The notes beneath the pieces are model-generated. The model saw nothing but the letters and a program-made list of their open reading frames with translations. It was not told the DNA's origin and did not search any database. A program made the position numbers and the translations under genes. A stretch of 64,000 bases of DNA, taken from positions 736,001 to 800,000 of the forward strand of contig OZ219786.1 of the NCBI GenBank assembly GCA_964291285.2, written 5' to 3'. Shown piece after piece: positions 20,021-54,108 of this stretch (within the stretch, counting starts at the first letter, position 1; every line of letters begins with the position of its first letter). The stretch comes from Alphaproteobacteria bacterium (GTDB lineage: Bacteria; Pseudomonadota; Alphaproteobacteria; Bin95).

Positions 20021-20857
20021 ATGCCCGATACCCTGGCCGACCTGGTGACGAAGCGTTACGGCCCCGAGACGCCCGGCGGCGCGGACATGCCGGCGGAGGG
20101 ACCGCTCGCGGCGATCCTCGACCGGCGCACCCACCGCCGCTACGCCGACCGGCCGGTCCCGGAGGACATGCTGGACCTGCTGTTCGCCTGCGCCTTCTCC
20201 GCCAGCGCCAAGTCCGACCTGCAGCAGGCTTCGGTCGTGCGGGTGGCCGACCCGGCGCTCCGGGCGGAGGTCGCCGCACTCATCCCGGGCATGCCGTGGA
20301 TCGGCACGGCGCCGGTATTCATGGTCTGGTGCGGCGACGGGCGGCGGATCAGGCGGATCTGCGAGTTGCGGGGCAAGCCGTTCGCCAACGACCATTTCGA
20401 TGCCGCCTTCAACCCGACCGTGGACGCCGCGCTCGCCATGCAGACCTTCATCCTCTCGGCGGAGGCGATGGGGCTCGGCTGCTGCCCGATCAGCGTCGTG
20501 CGCAACCATTGCTTCCGGGTGGGCGAACTGCTGGGCCTGCCGGAATGGGTGTTCCCGGTAGCCGGGCTCTGCGTCGGCTGGCCGGCGGCGGAGGGCTATA
20601 TCTCCATGCGGGTGCCGCCCTCGGTCACGGTCCACACCGACCGCTATGACGACGGCAAGCTGGCCGCCGGTATCGACGCATACGACCGCCGCCGCGACGC
20701 GGTTTACAGCATTCCGGCGGACAAGCAGCGGGACACCGACCGCTACGGCGAGGCGGGCTTCTACGGCTGGTCCGAGGACAAGGCGCGCCAGGTCTCGCAC
20801 ACCGAGCGCGAGGACTTCGGCGCCTTCCTCCGCCGGCAGGGCTACCGGCTGGACTGA
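20021..20857 (+). CDS. Nitroreductase, NfsA/FRP-like
   Basis: RRTHRRY, SASAKSDLQ, VDAALAMQ, GLGCCPI, PVAGLCVGWP. Confidence 0.9.
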   Translation: MPDTLADLVTKRYGPETPGGADMPAEGPLAAILDRRTHRRYADRPVPEDMLDLLFACAFSASAKSDLQQASVVRVADPALRAEVAALIPGMPWIGTAPVFMVWCGDGRRIRRICELRGKPFANDHFDAAFNPTVDAALAMQTFILSAEAMGLGCCPISVVRNHCFRVGELLGLPEWVFPVAGLCVGWPAAEGYISMRVPPSVTVHTDRYDDGKLAAGIDAYDRRRDAVYSIPADKQRDTDRYGEAGFYGWSEDKARQVSHTEREDFGAFLRRQGYRLD

Positions 20858-42751: not shown

Positions 42752-44447
42752 CCTAAATCCGGCAGTTGACGAGCTTGATCGCTGTCTCGGGGTAGTGTGA
42801 ACGGTCGGATTTGGGCGTGGATTTCAGCACGTGGTCGCGGCCCTGGGTGGCGGCAGCCAGGGTTGACGCCCCGGTTCGCGGCCATGGAGGTATTTCCTGA
42901 GCGCCTCGGCGAGGATGCGGCGCCAGCGATCCCCGGCGCTCAACTGCTCCGCAGTTTGCGTCAGCGACCGGAAGAAGCCGGCGATCCGGCGCAGCGCCGC
43001 CATCACCGTCTTGCGACGCCCGTGATGGGAGGTCACCGTCAGCCGGGTCTGGCCGGCGTGGTGGGTCTGGCGGGCAACCCCGTGCAGGAGCAGCGGCCGG
43101 CTGGTGATCGCCTCGCGGTGATGGTCGGGGTCGGCGAGGCGCACGAACAGGCTCCACCAGTTGTAGATGAGCGCGATCAGCCGGGCCATGTGCCGGCAGC
43201 GCGTCAGGTCGCGCGTGGTGAAGCCGCCCCAACCCCACTGGTTCTTCAACTCGTCGAAGCCGTTCTCCGCGTCCGCCCGGTCGCGGTAGAGCTGGGCCAG
43301 CGAGCGTATCTCCAGGTCCAGCGAGGTCGCCAGCACCGCGAACTCCCACACCCCGGTGCCGGGCTGCGCCTCGGTCCAGAACAGCTCGCCCTGGGCCTTG
43401 TCGCCACGCGTCAGCGCCAGCGTCGCAGGAAGCCGCCGACGCAGCACCACAACCCGGCGCGTCCGGCTCCAGCCCTGCAGACGCAGATCGGCCCCGATCC
43501 CCGACCAGCCCTGGCCTGCATCCTCCCAGCCGTCCCGCACCATCAGCCGCTCGGCAAGCCGGCGCGCCCCCTTCGTCAGGCGCAGCTTGAACAAATAGTC
43601 CAGACCCGCAGCCTCGCACGACGCCATGTTGGCCTCGCTGCCCCAGTCCTTATCGCCCCGCACCAGACGCGGCCAGCGATCCCGACCGAGACGGTCGAGC
43701 AACGCCCACAAGGACGGCGCCGCGCGCCTCGAATGGTGATGGTTGCCCGGCGCCACCTCGACATCCAGAACAAGCCGCGTGCCCGCCATCAGGAACGCAT
43801 GGCAGGCATGCGAGGGGCGGCCCGGCTTCTTCGGGTTGTAGCTCACAACCGCCCCCTCCTGACGACCGTAAAGCGCCTTGATCGTCGTGTCGCAGTCCAG
43901 AACCCACGGCTCCCTCAGCAGCGGACGGACCACCTCGTCCAGATGGCCCTGAAGCCACGATGTGCCGACATCCGCACCGATCCGCTCCAGACCGCGCCGC
44001 ACCGAATCCTCGCTCGCAACCTTGTCCATACCCAGCAGCGCAGGGTTCACCCCGTCGCCGCGCAGCGACGTGATGTGCGCATAGCGAGACTGCCCCGCCA
44101 GAACCGACAGAAGAACCGTCCCCAGGACATCCCGCTTCGACGGCGCGTTCGGGCTCGTGTAGTGCAGCGGGCAGTCCGCAACCAAAGCGTCAAAGCGACC
44201 GCTTACCTTCAGGTATTCCGAGAAAAACGCCAGATGCCCCAGCGGCGTCACCGCCGCATCAGGGTCCCATTCCACATGAACCGCGCCGCCGAAGGTGTCC
44301 ACCTTCACCGACGCTCGGGCGACATCCCGCACAGCGCCAGGATAATCACCCAAAGGGTGAGCCTCTTCGGCCCCTGAAAAGCCGCTCATACCCGCAGACT
44401 ACAAGGGATTCGGCAAGGCCAAGCCATCCTCAACTGCCGGATTTAGG
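42752..44447 (-). mobile_element. IS1380-family element, copy 3 (1696 bp, inverted)
   Basis: IR CCTAAATCCGGCAGTTGA; GTGAA TSD at 42747-42751 and 44448-44452. Confidence 0.9.
42824..44389 (-). CDS. IS1380-family transposase, intact (521 aa)
   Basis: Uninterrupted ORF with Tyr at codon 59. Confidence 0.88.
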   Translation of the reverse strand: MSGFSGAEEAHPLGDYPGAVRDVARASVKVDTFGGAVHVEWDPDAAVTPLGHLAFFSEYLKVSGRFDALVADCPLHYTSPNAPSKRDVLGTVLLSVLAGQSRYAHITSLRGDGVNPALLGMDKVASEDSVRRGLERIGADVGTSWLQGHLDEVVRPLLREPWVLDCDTTIKALYGRQEGAVVSYNPKKPGRPSHACHAFLMAGTRLVLDVEVAPGNHHHSRRAAPSLWALLDRLGRDRWPRLVRGDKDWGSEANMASCEAAGLDYLFKLRLTKGARRLAERLMVRDGWEDAGQGWSGIGADLRLQGWSRTRRVVVLRRRLPATLALTRGDKAQGELFWTEAQPGTGVWEFAVLATSLDLEIRSLAQLYRDRADAENGFDELKNQWGWGGFTTRDLTRCRHMARLIALIYNWWSLFVRLADPDHHREAITSRPLLLHGVARQTHHAGQTRLTVTSHHGRRKTVMAALRRIAGFFRSLTQTAEQLSAGDRWRRILAEALRKYLHGREPGRQPWLPPPRAATTC

Positions 44448-44538
44448 GTGAAGCCGGCAGGGCGTCAACCGGGCAGCAGTGGAACAAGTCCGGGCATGAC
44501 GAGAAGAAGACATGGGTCCCAAATCGAGGCCGCCGGTA

Positions 44539-45858
44539 TCAGACGCCCGCGGCGAAGAGCGCGAGGCCGGCGAGCGCGGCGGCGGCCAGCGTACGGAATG
44601 CGCCGAGCTTCAGCACGAAGAGCGCGACGGCGGCGAGGGCGGCCAGCGCGAGCGCCTTGAGGTCGAGGCTTGCCGGGTCCGGCAGATAGACGGAGACGGG
44701 GCCCGCTTGCGCGCGCGCGCCCTCTGCGAACAGCACGTTGAGCGCGAACCAGGCCGAGAGGTTGGCGATCACGCCCACCACGGCGGCCGTCACGCCGGCA
44801 AGCGCGGCCTGCAGTCCGGGCCGGCCGCGCAGCCGCTCGACATGCGGGGCGCCGGCGAAGATGAACAGGAAGCAGGGCGCGAAGGTGACCCATAGCGTGA
44901 GCCCCGCGCCGAGCAGCCCCGCGACCAGGGGGTCGAGCCCGCCCGCCTCGCGCCATGCCGCGAGGAAGCCGACGAATTCCACCACGAGGATGAGCGGCCC
45001 CGGCGTCGTCTCGGCGAGCCCGAGCGCATCCAGCATCTCGCCGGGCGCCAGCCAGCCCCTCGCGGCGACGGCCTCCTGCGCGACCCAGGAGAGTACGGCG
45101 TAGGCACCGCCGAAGGTCAGCACCGCCATCTTGGAGAAGAAGACCGCGATGCCGGAGAACACATGCCCGCCGCCGAGCCAGGCCAGCAGCAAGGCGGTCG
45201 GCAGGAGCCAGGCCGCGAGCAGGACGAGCGCCGCCCTGCCCGTGCCGGCGGCGGCTTGCGACCGGGCCGGGGCCGCCGCCTCCCCTGCCCCGCTCCCGCC
45301 GCCGAAAAACGCCCGCGCGCCGCCCAGCAGCGCCGCCGCGGCGATGACGGTCGGGAAGGGCGCGTCGAACAGGAAGAGCGCGGCGAACGCCCCGCAGGCC
45401 AGCAGCCAGGCGAAACCGTCCCTGAGCGCCCGCGCGCCGATCCGGAGCAGCGCTTCCACCACCAGCGCCAGCACCGCCGCCTTGACGCCGAGGAAGGCCG
45501 CCTCGACCGCCGGCAGCCGCCCGTAGAGCGCATACACCGCCGCGAGCGCGGCCATCACGACCGCGCCCGGCAGGATGAACAGCAGGCCTGCCGCGAGGCC
45601 GCCGCGTATGCCGTGCAGCAGCCAGCCGGCATAGGTGGCGAGTTGCTGCGCTTCCGGCCCCGGCAGCAGCATGCAGAAATTGAGCGCATGGAGGAAACGC
45701 GGCTCGTCGAGCCAGCGCTTCTCCTCCACCGCGACGCGGTGCATGAGCGCGATCTGCGCCGCCGGCCCGCCGAAACTGGCGAACCCGATCCGCGTCCAGG
45801 CCGCAAGCGCCTCCCGGAACGGGACGGGCGCGGCCGGCGGCGGCGTCTCCGCGCTCAG
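44539..45858 (-). CDS. chrA: Chromate efflux transporter ChrA (long-chain CHR); probable CTG start
   Basis: IGFASFGGPAAQIALMH, LPGPEAQQLA, TFGGAYAVL, ETTPGP. The first motif lies upstream of the first ATG (45744). Confidence 0.88.
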   Translation of the reverse strand: MSAETPPPAAPVPFREALAAWTRIGFASFGGPAAQIALMHRVAVEEKRWLDEPRFLHALNFCMLLPGPEAQQLATYAGWLLHGIRGGLAAGLLFILPGAVVMAALAAVYALYGRLPAVEAAFLGVKAAVLALVVEALLRIGARALRDGFAWLLACGAFAALFLFDAPFPTVIAAAALLGGARAFFGGGSGAGEAAAPARSQAAAGTGRAALVLLAAWLLPTALLLAWLGGGHVFSGIAVFFSKMAVLTFGGAYAVLSWVAQEAVAARGWLAPGEMLDALGLAETTPGPLILVVEFVGFLAAWREAGGLDPLVAGLLGAGLTLWVTFAPCFLFIFAGAPHVERLRGRPGLQAALAGVTAAVVGVIANLSAWFALNVLFAEGARAQAGPVSVYLPDPASLDLKALALAALAAVALFVLKLGAFRTLAAAALAGLALFAAGV

Positions 45859-46607
45859 CCGTCCCAGACCTGCTCGGGAAGCGGCAGGCCGCGGAAGTCC
45901 CCGGCGCCGAGCGGGCCGTCGGTCTCGATGCCGAGCATGTCGTGGATCAGCATCAGCTGCCGCACATGCTGGGCCGGGTGCCAGACCGTGCGCTCGAACA
46001 CCTCATGCAGCGCGTGCGCGCCGTAATAGGTGTCCACCGGGTCCGGTTTCGGCCCCGACTCCCACCAGCGGGCGACCCGCGCGCGCACCTCCTCGCCATA
46101 GGCCACGATGTCCGCCACGGTTTTCATGTCGTCGGGCGGCGGCGCGGTCAGCGCCTCGTAGTTGACGGGCTCGCCGCTCTCCATCGCCGAGATCGTTGCG
46201 TCCGCAATGTTGAAGATGTGGTGGAACAGGACCCGGTAGGCGCGGTCGCGGCCGGGCAGCTTGTCGCCGAGCCGGTCGTCCGGCACCTGGGCCACGTAGC
46301 GCGCGGCGGCAGCGAGCACCATGTCGAGCTTCGCCGCCAGCTCGGGCATGGAGAGCGCCGGCCCCACATCCTCGTCGAGGCCGAGAAACGCCACCACGTC
46401 CGAGATCGCCTGGGCGAAGACGAAATCCCCGCCGCGCGAGACGACCGGGATGGAGCGCGCGCCAAGCTCGCGCAGCATGTCCATGCCGGTCGGATGGGTC
46501 GTCACGTCGATACTGTCGAACTCGATCCCACGGACCGAGAGGAACTCCTTGGTTCTCAGGCAGCTGGTTCAGCCGGGCCGCCAGAAAACCCTGATCGCCT
46601 CGCTCAT
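45855..46607 (-). CDS. Glutaredoxin-like/DinB-like fusion, candidate selenoprotein (UxxC) with TGA at 46571-46569
   Basis: AGGAGG RBS; MSEAIRVFWRPG-U-TSCLRTKEFL...SIPVV (Grx cis-Pro region) then FHHIF...TVWHPAQHVRQL (DinB-type His triad). Confidence 0.87.
46535..46559 (-). promoter_or_regulatory. SECIS-like hairpin of the Grx-DinB gene
   Basis: CUGA/UCGG and GAAC/GUUC stems, CAAGGA loop 17 nt after UGA; weaker than the other two hairpins. Confidence 0.45.
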
Positions 46608-46857
46608 GCGCGTTCCTCCTCAGCCGTTGCGCGGCCCATCATAAGCGCATCGCCCGCCCCCGGCCACGGTTTCCCGGCAGGCCCCGTCCGGCAGCGGGCC
46701 ATTGCTGCCCCGCCCGCTTCTCCCTCCGCGCCGTGTTCCTCCCCTCCCGCCGCCAATTTGGTACAGACCGGCGGCGCCAACGCCGCCAATCGTAACGTTC
46801 GCCGCGTCCAGCGCGGCGGCGGGCGAAGCCCCGCAACCCTCTGCGCGCGCCGCGAGG

Positions 46858-46893
46858 CCCTCCCCCGACCCCTCCCGCCCAGCGGGAGGGGAG
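46858..46893. repeat. REP-like palindromic element
   Basis: ccctcccccgacccctcccgc-cca-gcgggaggggag hairpin in intergenic DNA. Confidence 0.5.
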
Positions 46894-47001
46894 AAAAGCC
46901 GGCCGACCCCCGCTCGGCTTCGACAATTCGACAAGCCGATTGCGGCCCGCCCCTCCGTGCCCTAACCTCGCCCCAGGTGCGGAGAGGGGGTTCCCGACGC
47001 G

Positions 47002-47568
47002 ATGTCATTCCCGGCAATGCTCGAAAGGCTCGAGACCGGGCTTGCGTGGGTAAACGACCGCATGATGGTGGGCCTGAAATGGCTCGCGATCGTCCTGCTC
47101 GCGATCATGCTGATCATCGTCGATATCGCCGTGTTCATGCGCTACGTGATGAACGACGCGCTCGCCTGGTCGGAAGAGATCGCCAAGTTCGTCATGGTGT
47201 GGCTGACCTTCTTCGTGGCGCCCATCGGCTTGCGCATGGGCGCGCATGTCGGCATCGAGGTGATCCTCGGCCAGCTGCGCGGGCGGCTTCGCCAGTTCCT
47301 CATCATGATGATCTTCGCCGGCATCATCGCGCTCATGGTGGTGTTCATAAAGGAAGGGGCGTTCATGACCTGGAACGCCCGCATCCAGCGCGCCTCCACC
47401 ATCGATATCTCGATCTTCTACGTCTACATCTGCATGCCGGTCGGCAGCTTCGCCGTCGCGATGGTGGCGCTGGAATACATGGTCAACGCGCTCCGGGGCG
47501 TCATAGACCCGGCCAATGCGAAGCCGACGCTGACGCAGACGCAGCAGGACGCGGTCAGGGCGGACTGA
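47002..47568 (+). CDS. dctQ: TRAP transporter small permease
   Basis: Four TM helices; RYVMND..WSEEIAKF; GAHVGI. Confidence 0.9.
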   Translation: MSFPAMLERLETGLAWVNDRMMVGLKWLAIVLLAIMLIIVDIAVFMRYVMNDALAWSEEIAKFVMVWLTFFVAPIGLRMGAHVGIEVILGQLRGRLRQFLIMMIFAGIIALMVVFIKEGAFMTWNARIQRASTIDISIFYVYICMPVGSFAVAMVALEYMVNALRGVIDPANAKPTLTQTQQDAVRAD

Positions 47569-47589
47569 CGGAGGCAACGGGCGGAACCC

Positions 47590-48900
47590 ATGGGCGTCAC
47601 CTTCTTCTGGATATTCCTCGCCGCGATGTTCATCGGCATGCCGATCGTCTTCGCGCTCGGCTTTGCGCCGATGGTGGGCTTCCTGCTGGCGGAGAAGCCG
47701 ATCTTCCTGAAGATGCTGTTCCAGCGCACCTTCGCCGGCATCCACCAGTTCCCGCTGCTCGCGATCCCCTTCTTCATCCTGACGGGCGAGGTGATGAACC
47801 GGGCCGGCATCACGATGAGCCTGGTCAATTTCGCCAACACGCTGGTCGGCCACCTGCGCGGCGGCCTCGCGCACGTGAACATCGTCACCAGCATGCTGTT
47901 CGCCGGCATCAGCGGCTCCGCTGTCGCCGACACCTCGGCGGTCGGCTCGATCCTGATCCCGGCGATGGAGAAGGACGGCTACAGCCGCAAATTCGCCGCC
48001 GCCATCACGGCGGCCTCCTCGGTCATCGGCCCGATCATCCCGCCGAGCCTCATCATGGTGGTCTATGCCTTCATCATGAACGTCTCGGTGGCCGGGCTGT
48101 TCGCCGCCGGGCTCATCCCGGGGCTCATGGTCGGCTTCATGCTGATGTCGGTGACCGGCATCATCTCCAAGCGGCGCAACTACCCGAAGGCGCACAGCCG
48201 CGCGACCGTGAAGGAAGTCGGCACTGCGGCCTGGGGCGCGGTGCTGCCGCTGATGACGCCGGTCATCATCCTGGGCGGCATCCTCGGCGGCATCTTCACG
48301 CCGACCGAGTCGGCGGCGGCGGCGGCCTTCTATGCGCTGTTCATCAGCCTCATCGTGCTGCGCACGCTGAAGTTCCGCGACCTGCCGGACCTGTTCCTCC
48401 ACGCGGCCGTCACCTCCGGCGCGATCCTGCTGATCATCGGCACCGCGACGGCCTTCGCCGCCATAGCCAGCCTCTCGCAGGTGCCGGTCCACCTGTCCAA
48501 CTTCTTCTTCTCCATCACCAGCGACCCGCTGCTGCTGCTGTTCTTCATCAACGTGCTGCTGCTGATCGTCGGCATGTTCCTCGACGCCGGCCCGGCCATC
48601 CTGATCCTCGGCCCGATCCTGGCGCCGACCATGACGGGTCTCGGCGTCGATCCGCTGCATTTCGCCGTCATCATGTGCATCAACCTGACGATCGGGCTCG
48701 CGACGCCGCCGATGGGTCTGATCCTGTTCGTCGCTTCCGGCATATCGCGATTGCGCGTCGAGGTGATCGCGCTCGAAATGCTGCCGCTGCTCGCAGTCGA
48801 AATCCTTGCAATTTTTGTCGTGACCTATTTCCCGGTCATCTCCATGTCGCTGCCTTACTGGCTCGGCTTCACCAGAAACGCGCCGGGTTTCTTCGTGTGA
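47590..48900 (+). CDS. dctM: TRAP transporter large permease
   Basis: LLAIPFFIL, FAGISGSAVAD, IIPPS, FTPTE, TPPMG. Confidence 0.93.
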   Translation: MGVTFFWIFLAAMFIGMPIVFALGFAPMVGFLLAEKPIFLKMLFQRTFAGIHQFPLLAIPFFILTGEVMNRAGITMSLVNFANTLVGHLRGGLAHVNIVTSMLFAGISGSAVADTSAVGSILIPAMEKDGYSRKFAAAITAASSVIGPIIPPSLIMVVYAFIMNVSVAGLFAAGLIPGLMVGFMLMSVTGIISKRRNYPKAHSRATVKEVGTAAWGAVLPLMTPVIILGGILGGIFTPTESAAAAAFYALFISLIVLRTLKFRDLPDLFLHAAVTSGAILLIIGTATAFAAIASLSQVPVHLSNFFFSITSDPLLLLFFINVLLLIVGMFLDAGPAILILGPILAPTMTGLGVDPLHFAVIMCINLTIGLATPPMGLILFVASGISRLRVEVIALEMLPLLAVEILAIFVVTYFPVISMSLPYWLGFTRNAPGFFV

Positions 48901-53220: not shown

Positions 53221-54108
53221 TCAGGGCGCGCGCCTGGCCAGCACGGCCTCGCGATAGCCGATATACATGCCAGACGCCACAATCATGCCCGCCCCGACCC
53301 AGGTCCAGAGGTCCGGGAAGTAGCCGAAGACGACGAAGCCGAGCAGAGCCGCGAAGATGAGGTGGCTGTAGTTGAACGGCGCGATGACGGATGCGGGGCC
53401 GCTGCCGAAGGCGATCGTGTACAGATAGTGGCCGAGGCCCGAGAGCAGGCCGAGGGACACGATCATGCCGATTTCGACGGGGGCGGCGGGCGTTCGCCAG
53501 TCGCCCCAGACGACGAGGCTGAGCGCGGCCGTTCCGACCACGGTGGCGATGGTGGCCGACGTCGCCGCGTCCTCGCCTGCGGAGAGCTTGCGCGTCAGCA
53601 GCGAGTAGAACGCACTGGTGAAGGCCGAACCGACCGTGAAGACGATCTGCCAGGGCGTGTCGCCGAAACCGGGGCGGATGATGACGAGCGCGCCGATGAA
53701 GCCGACGACGACCGCCGACCAGCGGCGCGGGCCGACCCGCTCGCCCAGTACCGGTCCCGAAAGCGCCGTTATGAGCACCGGCCCCAGCATGGTGATGGCC
53801 GCCGCGGTCGCGAGCGGCACCCACTTGATCGCCAGGAAGAAGCACAATGACGAGGACAGCAGGCAGGCGCCGCGAAGGATCTGCGCCGCCGGGCGCGCGG
53901 TCCTGAGCAGCAGGAAGCGCCGCCCGCGCACCGGCGTGAAGACCGCGAGCATGAAGAGCAGCGCGCCGGCATAACGGGCCCAGACGAGCTGCACGGGCCC
54001 GTAATCCGCCCTCAGCATCTTCACCTCGACATTGAGGATGGAGAAGAGCGCGACGGCAGAGACCACGAGCAGGATCGCCAGTCCGATGCGGTCGCGGGGC
54101 CGGTCCAT
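53221..54108 (-). CDS. DMT/EamA family transporter
   Basis: About ten TM helices; LGERVGPRRW..GFIG, IAPFNY. Confidence 0.9.
   Translation of the reverse strand: MDRPRDRIGLAILLVVSAVALFSILNVEVKMLRADYGPVQLVWARYAGALLFMLAVFTPVRGRRFLLLRTARPAAQILRGACLLSSSLCFFLAIKWVPLATAAAITMLGPVLITALSGPVLGERVGPRRWSAVVVGFIGALVIIRPGFGDTPWQIVFTVGSAFTSAFYSLLTRKLSAGEDAATSATIATVVGTAALSLVVWGDWRTPAAPVEIGMIVSLGLLSGLGHYLYTIAFGSGPASVIAPFNYSHLIFAALLGFVVFGYFPDLWTWVGAGMIVASGMYIGYREAVLARRAP

Follow-up and report, generated by a model that had tools for sequence, protein, structure and literature searches.

The known mechanism nearest to the one considered here is termination-reinitiation at 4-nucleotide (nt) ATGA and 1-nt TGATG overlaps between genes (Huber et al. 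2019, PMC6728339; review PMC12548453; both sources available in part). In addition, selenium controls expression downstream of the selenocysteine (Sec) codon of Treponema primitia fdhF(Sec) via translation-coupled transcription (Matson et al. 2013, PMC3892789, available in part), and a Sec-containing glutaredoxin (Grx, PF00462, UxxC) is listed in the available part of a 2026 review of prokaryotic selenoproteomes (PMC13188914). Here, we analyze a two-gene locus on the minus strand at positions 44539-46607 of a 64,000-nt stretch of an Alphaproteobacteria genome (assembly GCA_964291285.2, contig OZ219786.1, positions 736,001 to 800,000 of the forward strand), hereafter the window, whose numbering is used throughout. 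The first gene encodes a glutaredoxin fused to a DinB_2 domain (Grx-DinB), with an in-frame UGA at codon 13; the second, chrA, encodes a CHR-family transporter, has no canonical start codon ahead of its conserved N-terminal motif, and overlaps the stop codon of the first gene through a CTG, as CTGA. To our reading of these sources, the attachment of a transporter gene lacking a start codon to the stop of a selenoprotein gene with an early UGA, found genus-wide, is a new variation on known arrangements.

As in the ATGA and TGATG coupling described in the available part of PMC6728339, chrA has a -4 stop/start overlap and no evident Shine-Dalgarno sequence for the downstream cistron; unlike there, the proposed start within the overlap is CTG, which is not canonical, in all 17 species of the genus that were compared (the genome of the window plus 16 others with a chrA orthologue). 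The terms CTGA, GTGA, TTGA, and CTG are absent from the text of that paper as available, and CUG and near-cognate are absent from the available text of the review (PMC12548453). A literature search for CTGA overlaps gave a sole match, an unrelated use of the word. Reinitiation at non-canonical codons in eukaryotes (PMC4648390) depends on 40S scanning and Kozak context and was set aside as not applicable. The likeness to T. primitia fdhF(Sec) (PMC3892789, in its available part) is that decoding of UGA as Sec would decide the fate of the downstream mRNA, with selenium setting expression; there, the effect concerns the transcript of the same gene, whereas here it would concern a second cistron, encoding an unrelated membrane transporter with a start that would be poor alone. 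The upstream protein resembles the Sec-containing Grx listed in PMC13188914 in its glutaredoxin fold, its U-x-x-C active site, and its Cys homologues, and differs from that entry, as given in the available part, in being fused to a predicted metal-binding domain, DinB_2, within 250 aa; 'DinB' is absent from the main text of that review as available. Finally, the downstream protein resembles long-chain ChrA (TIGR00937, PF02417) in its two Chromate_transp domains, a score over the cut-off, and an N-terminal FGGP motif, and departs from it in that its gene has no canonical start of its own; no ChrB-type regulator was noticed nearby.

Our best reading of this locus, to which we would give about an even chance, is termination-reinitiation at the CUG, tying ChrA synthesis to selenocysteine decoding. 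The two genes would form an operon for a Grx-DinB redox enzyme with an active-site selenocysteine and then for the CHR-family anion exporter ChrA. A hairpin 30 nt past the UGA at codon 13 would aid its decoding as selenocysteine, only ribosomes that had inserted selenocysteine there would reach the stop, and ChrA would begin at the CUG, three bases of which are shared with that UGA stop. CUG is a weak initiator, and given that no Shine-Dalgarno core precedes it, ChrA would most likely be made mainly by termination-reinitiation. Since the stop would be reached only after Sec insertion, the output of ChrA should be low, track the amount of selenoprotein, and fall when selenium is scarce. Release at codon 13 would leave 714 nt untranslated and would probably add transcriptional polarity, for which T. 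primitia fdhF(Sec) offers a demonstrated precedent (PMC3892789). The dependence of ChrA on a terminating ribosome, its dependence on selenium, and any adaptive value of either are what we infer from the anatomy and conservation described below.

The profile matches identify ChrA (44539-45858, minus strand; 439 codons from the CTG plus the stop) as a long-chain CHR-family transporter, for which chromate efflux is predicted. The protein contains two Chromate_transp (PF02417) stretches (E = 3.6e-70, 235.7 bits) and scores 206.7 bits against TIGR00937 (chromate efflux transporter), with a curated cut-off of 171.7. Its frame is open from 46005, and the statement of the initial annotation that no in-frame ATG, GTG, or TTG precedes the N-terminal motif holds: the first canonical start is the ATG at 45744-45742, a Met codon within the conserved block FGGPAAQIALMHR. 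Counted from the CTG at 45858-45856, position 4 of the Chromate_transp profile aligns with residue 18, and the FGGP motif lies 28 codons from the CTG. This CTG shares three bases with the TGA stop of Grx-DinB (45857-45855), a -4 overlap that makes up the CTGA junction at 45855-45858. The same annotation had likened this geometry to that of ATGA overlaps in the window, and indeed five ATGA junctions with a two-sided coding signature occur elsewhere in it. None of AGGA, GGAG, and GAGG occurs in the 23 nt 5' of the chrA CTG, in contrast to the GAGGAGG before the ATG of the selenoprotein gene. The public gene call for ChrA on the same contig is a 401-aa protein from ATG 45744 (44542-45744). The window also holds two further CTGA junctions with a two-sided coding signature, one at 20854 (plus strand), which is a cTGATG overlap, and one at 53224 (minus strand), which has a canonical start within 12 codons.

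Grx-DinB lies immediately upstream of chrA in all 17 species, and the last 16 bases of its gene, through the TGA, are identical in every one of them, so that both the pair and the overlap, whose conservation the initial annotation had named as a check, are conserved. It had also allowed for a recent mutation or error at this site, with relatives showing ATG; none of the 17 species does, and that explanation is thus not borne out. These genomes are kin and not independent, yet 9-32% of their four-fold sites differ from the window. In 13 of the 17 species, no canonical start is found between the upstream in-frame stop and FGGP. In one of the four exceptions, a Thr-to-Met change within the conserved block places an ATG 7 codons ahead of FGGP; another has a TTG at codon 5 past the CTG; and the remaining two each have a GTG far upstream, at a distance of 93-97 codons. 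The chrA frame of one species (L064) opens just 5 codons before the CTG. Throughout the genus, chrA is intact and 75-95% identical.

The region between the CTG and the first canonical start carries the marks of a coding sequence. Across the 30 codons from PFREAL up to and including ATG 45744, variable sites number 7, 6, and 22 at codon positions 1, 2, and 3, respectively, and half of these codons (n = 15) show synonymous variation only. Ahead of them, a variable, Pro/Ala-rich N-terminal linker (codons 2-12, 45823-45855) separates the CTG from PFREAL, and in the 17 species this linker falls into five length classes (24, 27, 33, 36, and 39 nt), each a multiple of three. Third-position variation, together with linker indels that are in frame only, indicates that the stretch of ChrA before ATG 45744 is translated, from a start at or before the linker; on this comparative evidence, translation covers the sequence from the CTG on. 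In other genera, 13 loci carry ChrA orthologues (51-61% identical), and every one of them has a canonical start at a distance of 18-42 codons from FGGP, mostly an ATG 20-32 codons before the motif, which is the equivalent place to that of the CTG here. No Grx-DinB match was found upstream of chrA at any of these 13 loci, two of which have only ~0.3 kb of upstream sequence.

The second line of evidence concerns the upstream gene (45855-46607, minus strand; 250 codons plus the stop), which runs from an ATG at 46607-46605 to the TGA at 45857-45855. A Shine-Dalgarno-like GAGGAGG (46615-46621, minus strand) lies 7 nt 5' of the ATG, and its AGGAGG part (46620-46615) is invariant in the window and six relatives. 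The in-frame TGA at codon 13 (46571-46569), read as selenocysteine, would provide the first position of a U-T-S-C motif. Residues 6-63 match Glutaredoxin (PF00462; 40.2 bits versus a gathering cut-off of 22.9) and include this motif, and residues 128-218 match DinB_2 (PF12867; 29.3 bits versus 24.8). In an alignment of 46 sequences, three DinB_2 His columns are invariant and two more nearly so. The nearest solved chains to the Grx part are NrdH-type redoxins (E = 1.6e-5), and no NCBIfam model matches Grx-DinB at or above its cut-off. On the same contig, the public gene call for this gene (45858-46484) is a 209-aa DinB fragment from the ATG at codon 42, and Grx-DinB proteins of the genus are represented in public protein collections solely by such 209-residue 'DinB family' fragments, just as ChrA is represented there only by its 401-residue form.

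The initial annotation had taken the upstream gene for a selenoprotein gene with a UGA at codon 13, and Cys homologues, a co-varying hairpin, sel genes, and a tRNA for selenocysteine all agree with this. In a class sample of 401 genomes, the Grx-DinB family was found in 23, with one in-frame TGA in 17 of them and none in the other 6. At the aligned active-site codon (the first position of x-T/S-S-C), 23 loci have TGA, and 6 loci have TGC or TGT. The Cys-form family is large, with 1041 proteins at E<=1e-10 whose database names are glutaredoxin or DinB protein. A SECIS-like (selenocysteine insertion sequence-like) hairpin at 46522-46538 (minus strand), with a 7-bp stem and a GUG loop, begins 30 nt past the UGA. 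When RNAalifold was run on the 23 TGA-form loci, it returned this hairpin with six predicted pairs, three of which show compensatory changes, and the hairpin sequence is not kept in the 6 Cys-form loci. The distance from the UGA to the loop is 37 nt, at the far end of the range for bacterial SECIS elements. Within the genus, synonymous variation is suppressed over codons 20-31 of the gene. More broadly, the genome encodes selA and selB side by side and also selD, all above their cut-offs, and ARAGORN detected a tRNA-SeC with anticodon tca. The selD match itself (C2:1357981-1358862, minus strand) sits in a 747-aa open frame, against a 311-position model, and possibly represents a fused domain. 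Collectively, these comparisons establish Grx-DinB as a genuine selenoprotein gene, with selenocysteine predicted in the protein.

A genome-wide scan was made for NTGA junctions flanked on either side by a coding signature; CTG codons at such junctions were the scope of this search. The scan returned 323 ATGA, 181 GTGA, 33 TTGA, and 182 CTGA junctions. The majority of the 182 CTGA junctions are cTGATG overlaps or have a nearby start, and 36 have no canonical start within 12 codons; among these 36, 13 are copies of one repeat, and several more reflect a wrong frame. Two convincing start-less genes were found at CTGA in addition to chrA, namely mnmE and the gene for an EamA transporter. In mnmE (C1:294943, minus strand), TrmE_N profile positions 1-117 correspond to residues 7-122 counted from the CTG, the first canonical start lies 21 codons past the CTG, and no Shine-Dalgarno core lies ahead of it. 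The mnmE motif could be located in 14 species of the genus, and all 14 keep the CTGA; one of them has an in-frame stop 2 codons upstream of the CTG, and three loci of another genus in the family have an ATG 5-11 codons before the motif. In the EamA transporter gene (C3:1259045, minus strand), the profile begins at residue 7 from the CTG, no canonical start occurs until 42 codons into the gene, and a GAGG lies 10 nt upstream of the CTG. Of 16 species, 15 have CTGA at its junction; the other one differs in the sequence upstream and has an ATG at exactly that codon. We conclude from these alignments that the CTG of CTGA junctions recurs as a start position in the genus, affecting no fewer than three conserved genes, with the housekeeping gene mnmE among them, and that starting at CTGA is common practice in this genome rather than a device special to the selenoprotein-chrA operon.

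The same scan turned up two more EamA-type genes at CTGA (L085:1516 and L086:1561, both minus strand), which are ambiguous, as their first canonical start lies in or just before the first membrane helix. The 13-copy repeat occurs on C2, C3, and C4 (e.g., C3:138095, plus strand) and has a second open reading frame (ORF) that is in the -1 frame, abuts CTGA, and runs for 40-60 codons before any start. The repeat probably encodes a transposase that is expressed through programmed frameshifting.

Several observations weigh against a coupling of ChrA to selenocysteine decoding. Since CTGA starts occur at unrelated genes, the chrA overlap need not concern selenium. The C before the TGA is not conserved beyond the neutral expectation, as invariance is likewise seen at 29 of the 93 four-fold sites of the upstream gene and at 6 of its 14 conserved Gly codons; the last four synonymous sites are all invariant, with odds of ~0.01 at the 68% rate of the gene, and comparable runs exist elsewhere in it. 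Selection for the C of CTGA was accordingly dropped, being indistinguishable from neutral retention. A start-hiding RNA structure was looked for at the junction, and the fold energy there is no different from that of shuffled sequences (z-score of -0.06); a long RNAalifold stem over the junction was rejected for the same z-score and because 0 of its 22 pairs show a compensatory change. Past the UGA, the upstream frame contains an in-frame GTG (codon 35) and ATGs (codons 42 and 44), and initiation at any of these would bypass selenium. An internal promoter may serve chrA. The pairing of Grx-DinB with chrA is confined to one genus, and the start site and coupling at the CTG are read from sequence only.

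Data on transcription were also considered. A 522-nt RNA-library contig from a related strain (33 differences) spans the junction (45602-46121) and is compatible with co-transcription, though not proof of it; that it may derive from DNA counts against its use in favor of the coupling. In RNA libraries X19 and X20, contigs lie on the upstream gene only, and these small shares, available as contigs only, are uninformative for chrA. A promoter scan of 44300-47100, covering sigma-70-like sites, found none on the minus strand, and a terminator scan of the same region returned four weak terminator-like sites versus 1.4 expected; both scans are uninformative for such an organism.

Four other explanations of the missing start need to be weighed against termination-reinitiation. 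ChrA might start at the same CUG, or at a CUG three codons upstream, with 30S subunits initiating independently, either on the mRNA of the operon or on a transcript of its own, in which case the overlap would be incidental and any effect of selenium small. We regard this as somewhat unlikely. In its favor, NCBI table 11 accepts CTG as a bacterial start, the CTG three codons upstream is invariant as well, the EamA gene has its GAGG ahead of the CTG, and the invariance of the C is what neutral retention would give. What speaks for restart by a terminating ribosome instead of fresh 30S binding is that the 23 nt ahead of the chrA CTG contain no Shine-Dalgarno core, that none precedes the CTG of mnmE either, and that the three well-supported start-less genes all sit exactly at CTGA, in a scan that covered such junctions only. 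Alternatively, only the ATG at 45744 might be used, giving a 401-residue protein with 38 upstream codons untranslated. No canonical start comes earlier, and public collections list this product for the contig; we nevertheless consider it very improbable, since such a protein would lack the conserved N-terminal block (Pfam profile positions 4 to ~24), the 30 upstream codons vary mainly at the third position, the linker changes length only in frame, and the starts of orthologues in other genera precede FGGP by 18-42 codons.

If ribosomes underwent a programmed -1 frameshift shortly before the Grx-DinB stop, as in two-ORF transposases, a Grx-DinB-ChrA fusion protein would result. Like the second ORF of such elements, chrA is in the -1 frame relative to the gene upstream, is open across the end of that gene, and has no canonical start, and the 13-copy repeat shows that this start-less signature exists in the genome. 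The species in which the chrA frame opens 5 codons before the CTG confines any frameshift to the last 16 bases, and in contrast to two-ORF transposases, no X XXY YYZ slippery heptamer is seen there by inspection. No fused homologues were found either; among proteins of 439-2000 aa, 2 match Grx-DinB and 0 carry a chromate-transporter domain, which is weak evidence. Moreover, the mnmE of one species, with its stop 2 codons upstream of the CTG, argues against frameshifting at a junction of the same kind. Taken together, these points leave a frameshift with hardly any likelihood. The least probable explanation, which we consider negligible, is a sequencing or assembly error or a decaying pseudogene: no supporting point was found for it, the junction is identical in assemblies of 17 species, chrA is intact and well conserved across the genus, and a near-identical DNA contig of a public run, possibly the source of the assembly, covers the whole stretch with zero differences. 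Termination-reinitiation at the CUG remains the reading we prefer.

What the pair does is a separate matter. The initial annotation had suggested a possible link of ChrA to selenium oxyanions, and nothing was found in support of this. The pairing belongs to one genus only: outside it, 21 Grx-DinB loci were examined, and at no locus is there a chrA within 1.5 kb. Among 20 flanking ORFs from 13 of the 21 loci, the neighbors of Grx-DinB in other genera include no constant partner. A glutathione S-transferase is the upstream neighbor in two cases; gamma-glutamyltranspeptidase, OsmC, and a pyridine-nucleotide disulphide oxidoreductase occur once each, and the rest are unrelated enzymes, which together lend these neighborhoods a faint glutathione/redox flavor. 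An exporter of an oxidizing oxyanion beside a thiol/selenol redox enzyme would make a sensible stress operon. Reading the operon as selenium-gated is plausible on its sequence features. In the fullest version, Sec insertion at codon 13 would read the selenium status of the cell before the CHR exporter is made, the exporter and Grx-DinB would together handle a toxic oxyanion (chromate or selenate/selenite), and the weak, Shine-Dalgarno-less CUG would be kept for strict dependence; we think this version unlikely to be right, and its adaptive and substrate claims, including transport of selenate or selenite by ChrA, are speculative.

The locus is flanked by genes of other kinds. Divergent from the selenoprotein gene, and sharing a 394-nt intergenic region with it, are the TRAP transporter genes dctQ and dctM (47002-48900, plus strand; Pfam DctQ and DctM), and directly downstream of chrA lies a DDE transposase gene (42824-44389, minus strand; Pfam DDE_Tnp_1_4 and DDE_Tnp_1). 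With respect to habitat, partial matches to 44539-46700 (0.27-0.37 of sampled words) came mostly from sponge, coral, and marine metagenome runs, of which four were compared; this is a habitat hint only.

The CTGA junction has consequences for how such genes are read. The current annotation is wrong for both members of the pair, as the selenoprotein loses its Sec active site (209 of 250 residues kept) and ChrA loses its first 38 residues (401 of 439 kept). CTG starts at CTGA have been overlooked, and gene finders that admit only ATG, GTG, and TTG will shorten such proteins. If ChrA synthesis does need ribosomes that have passed the Sec codon, then a trace element would control a transporter in these bacteria through recoding and reinitiation, without any regulator protein.

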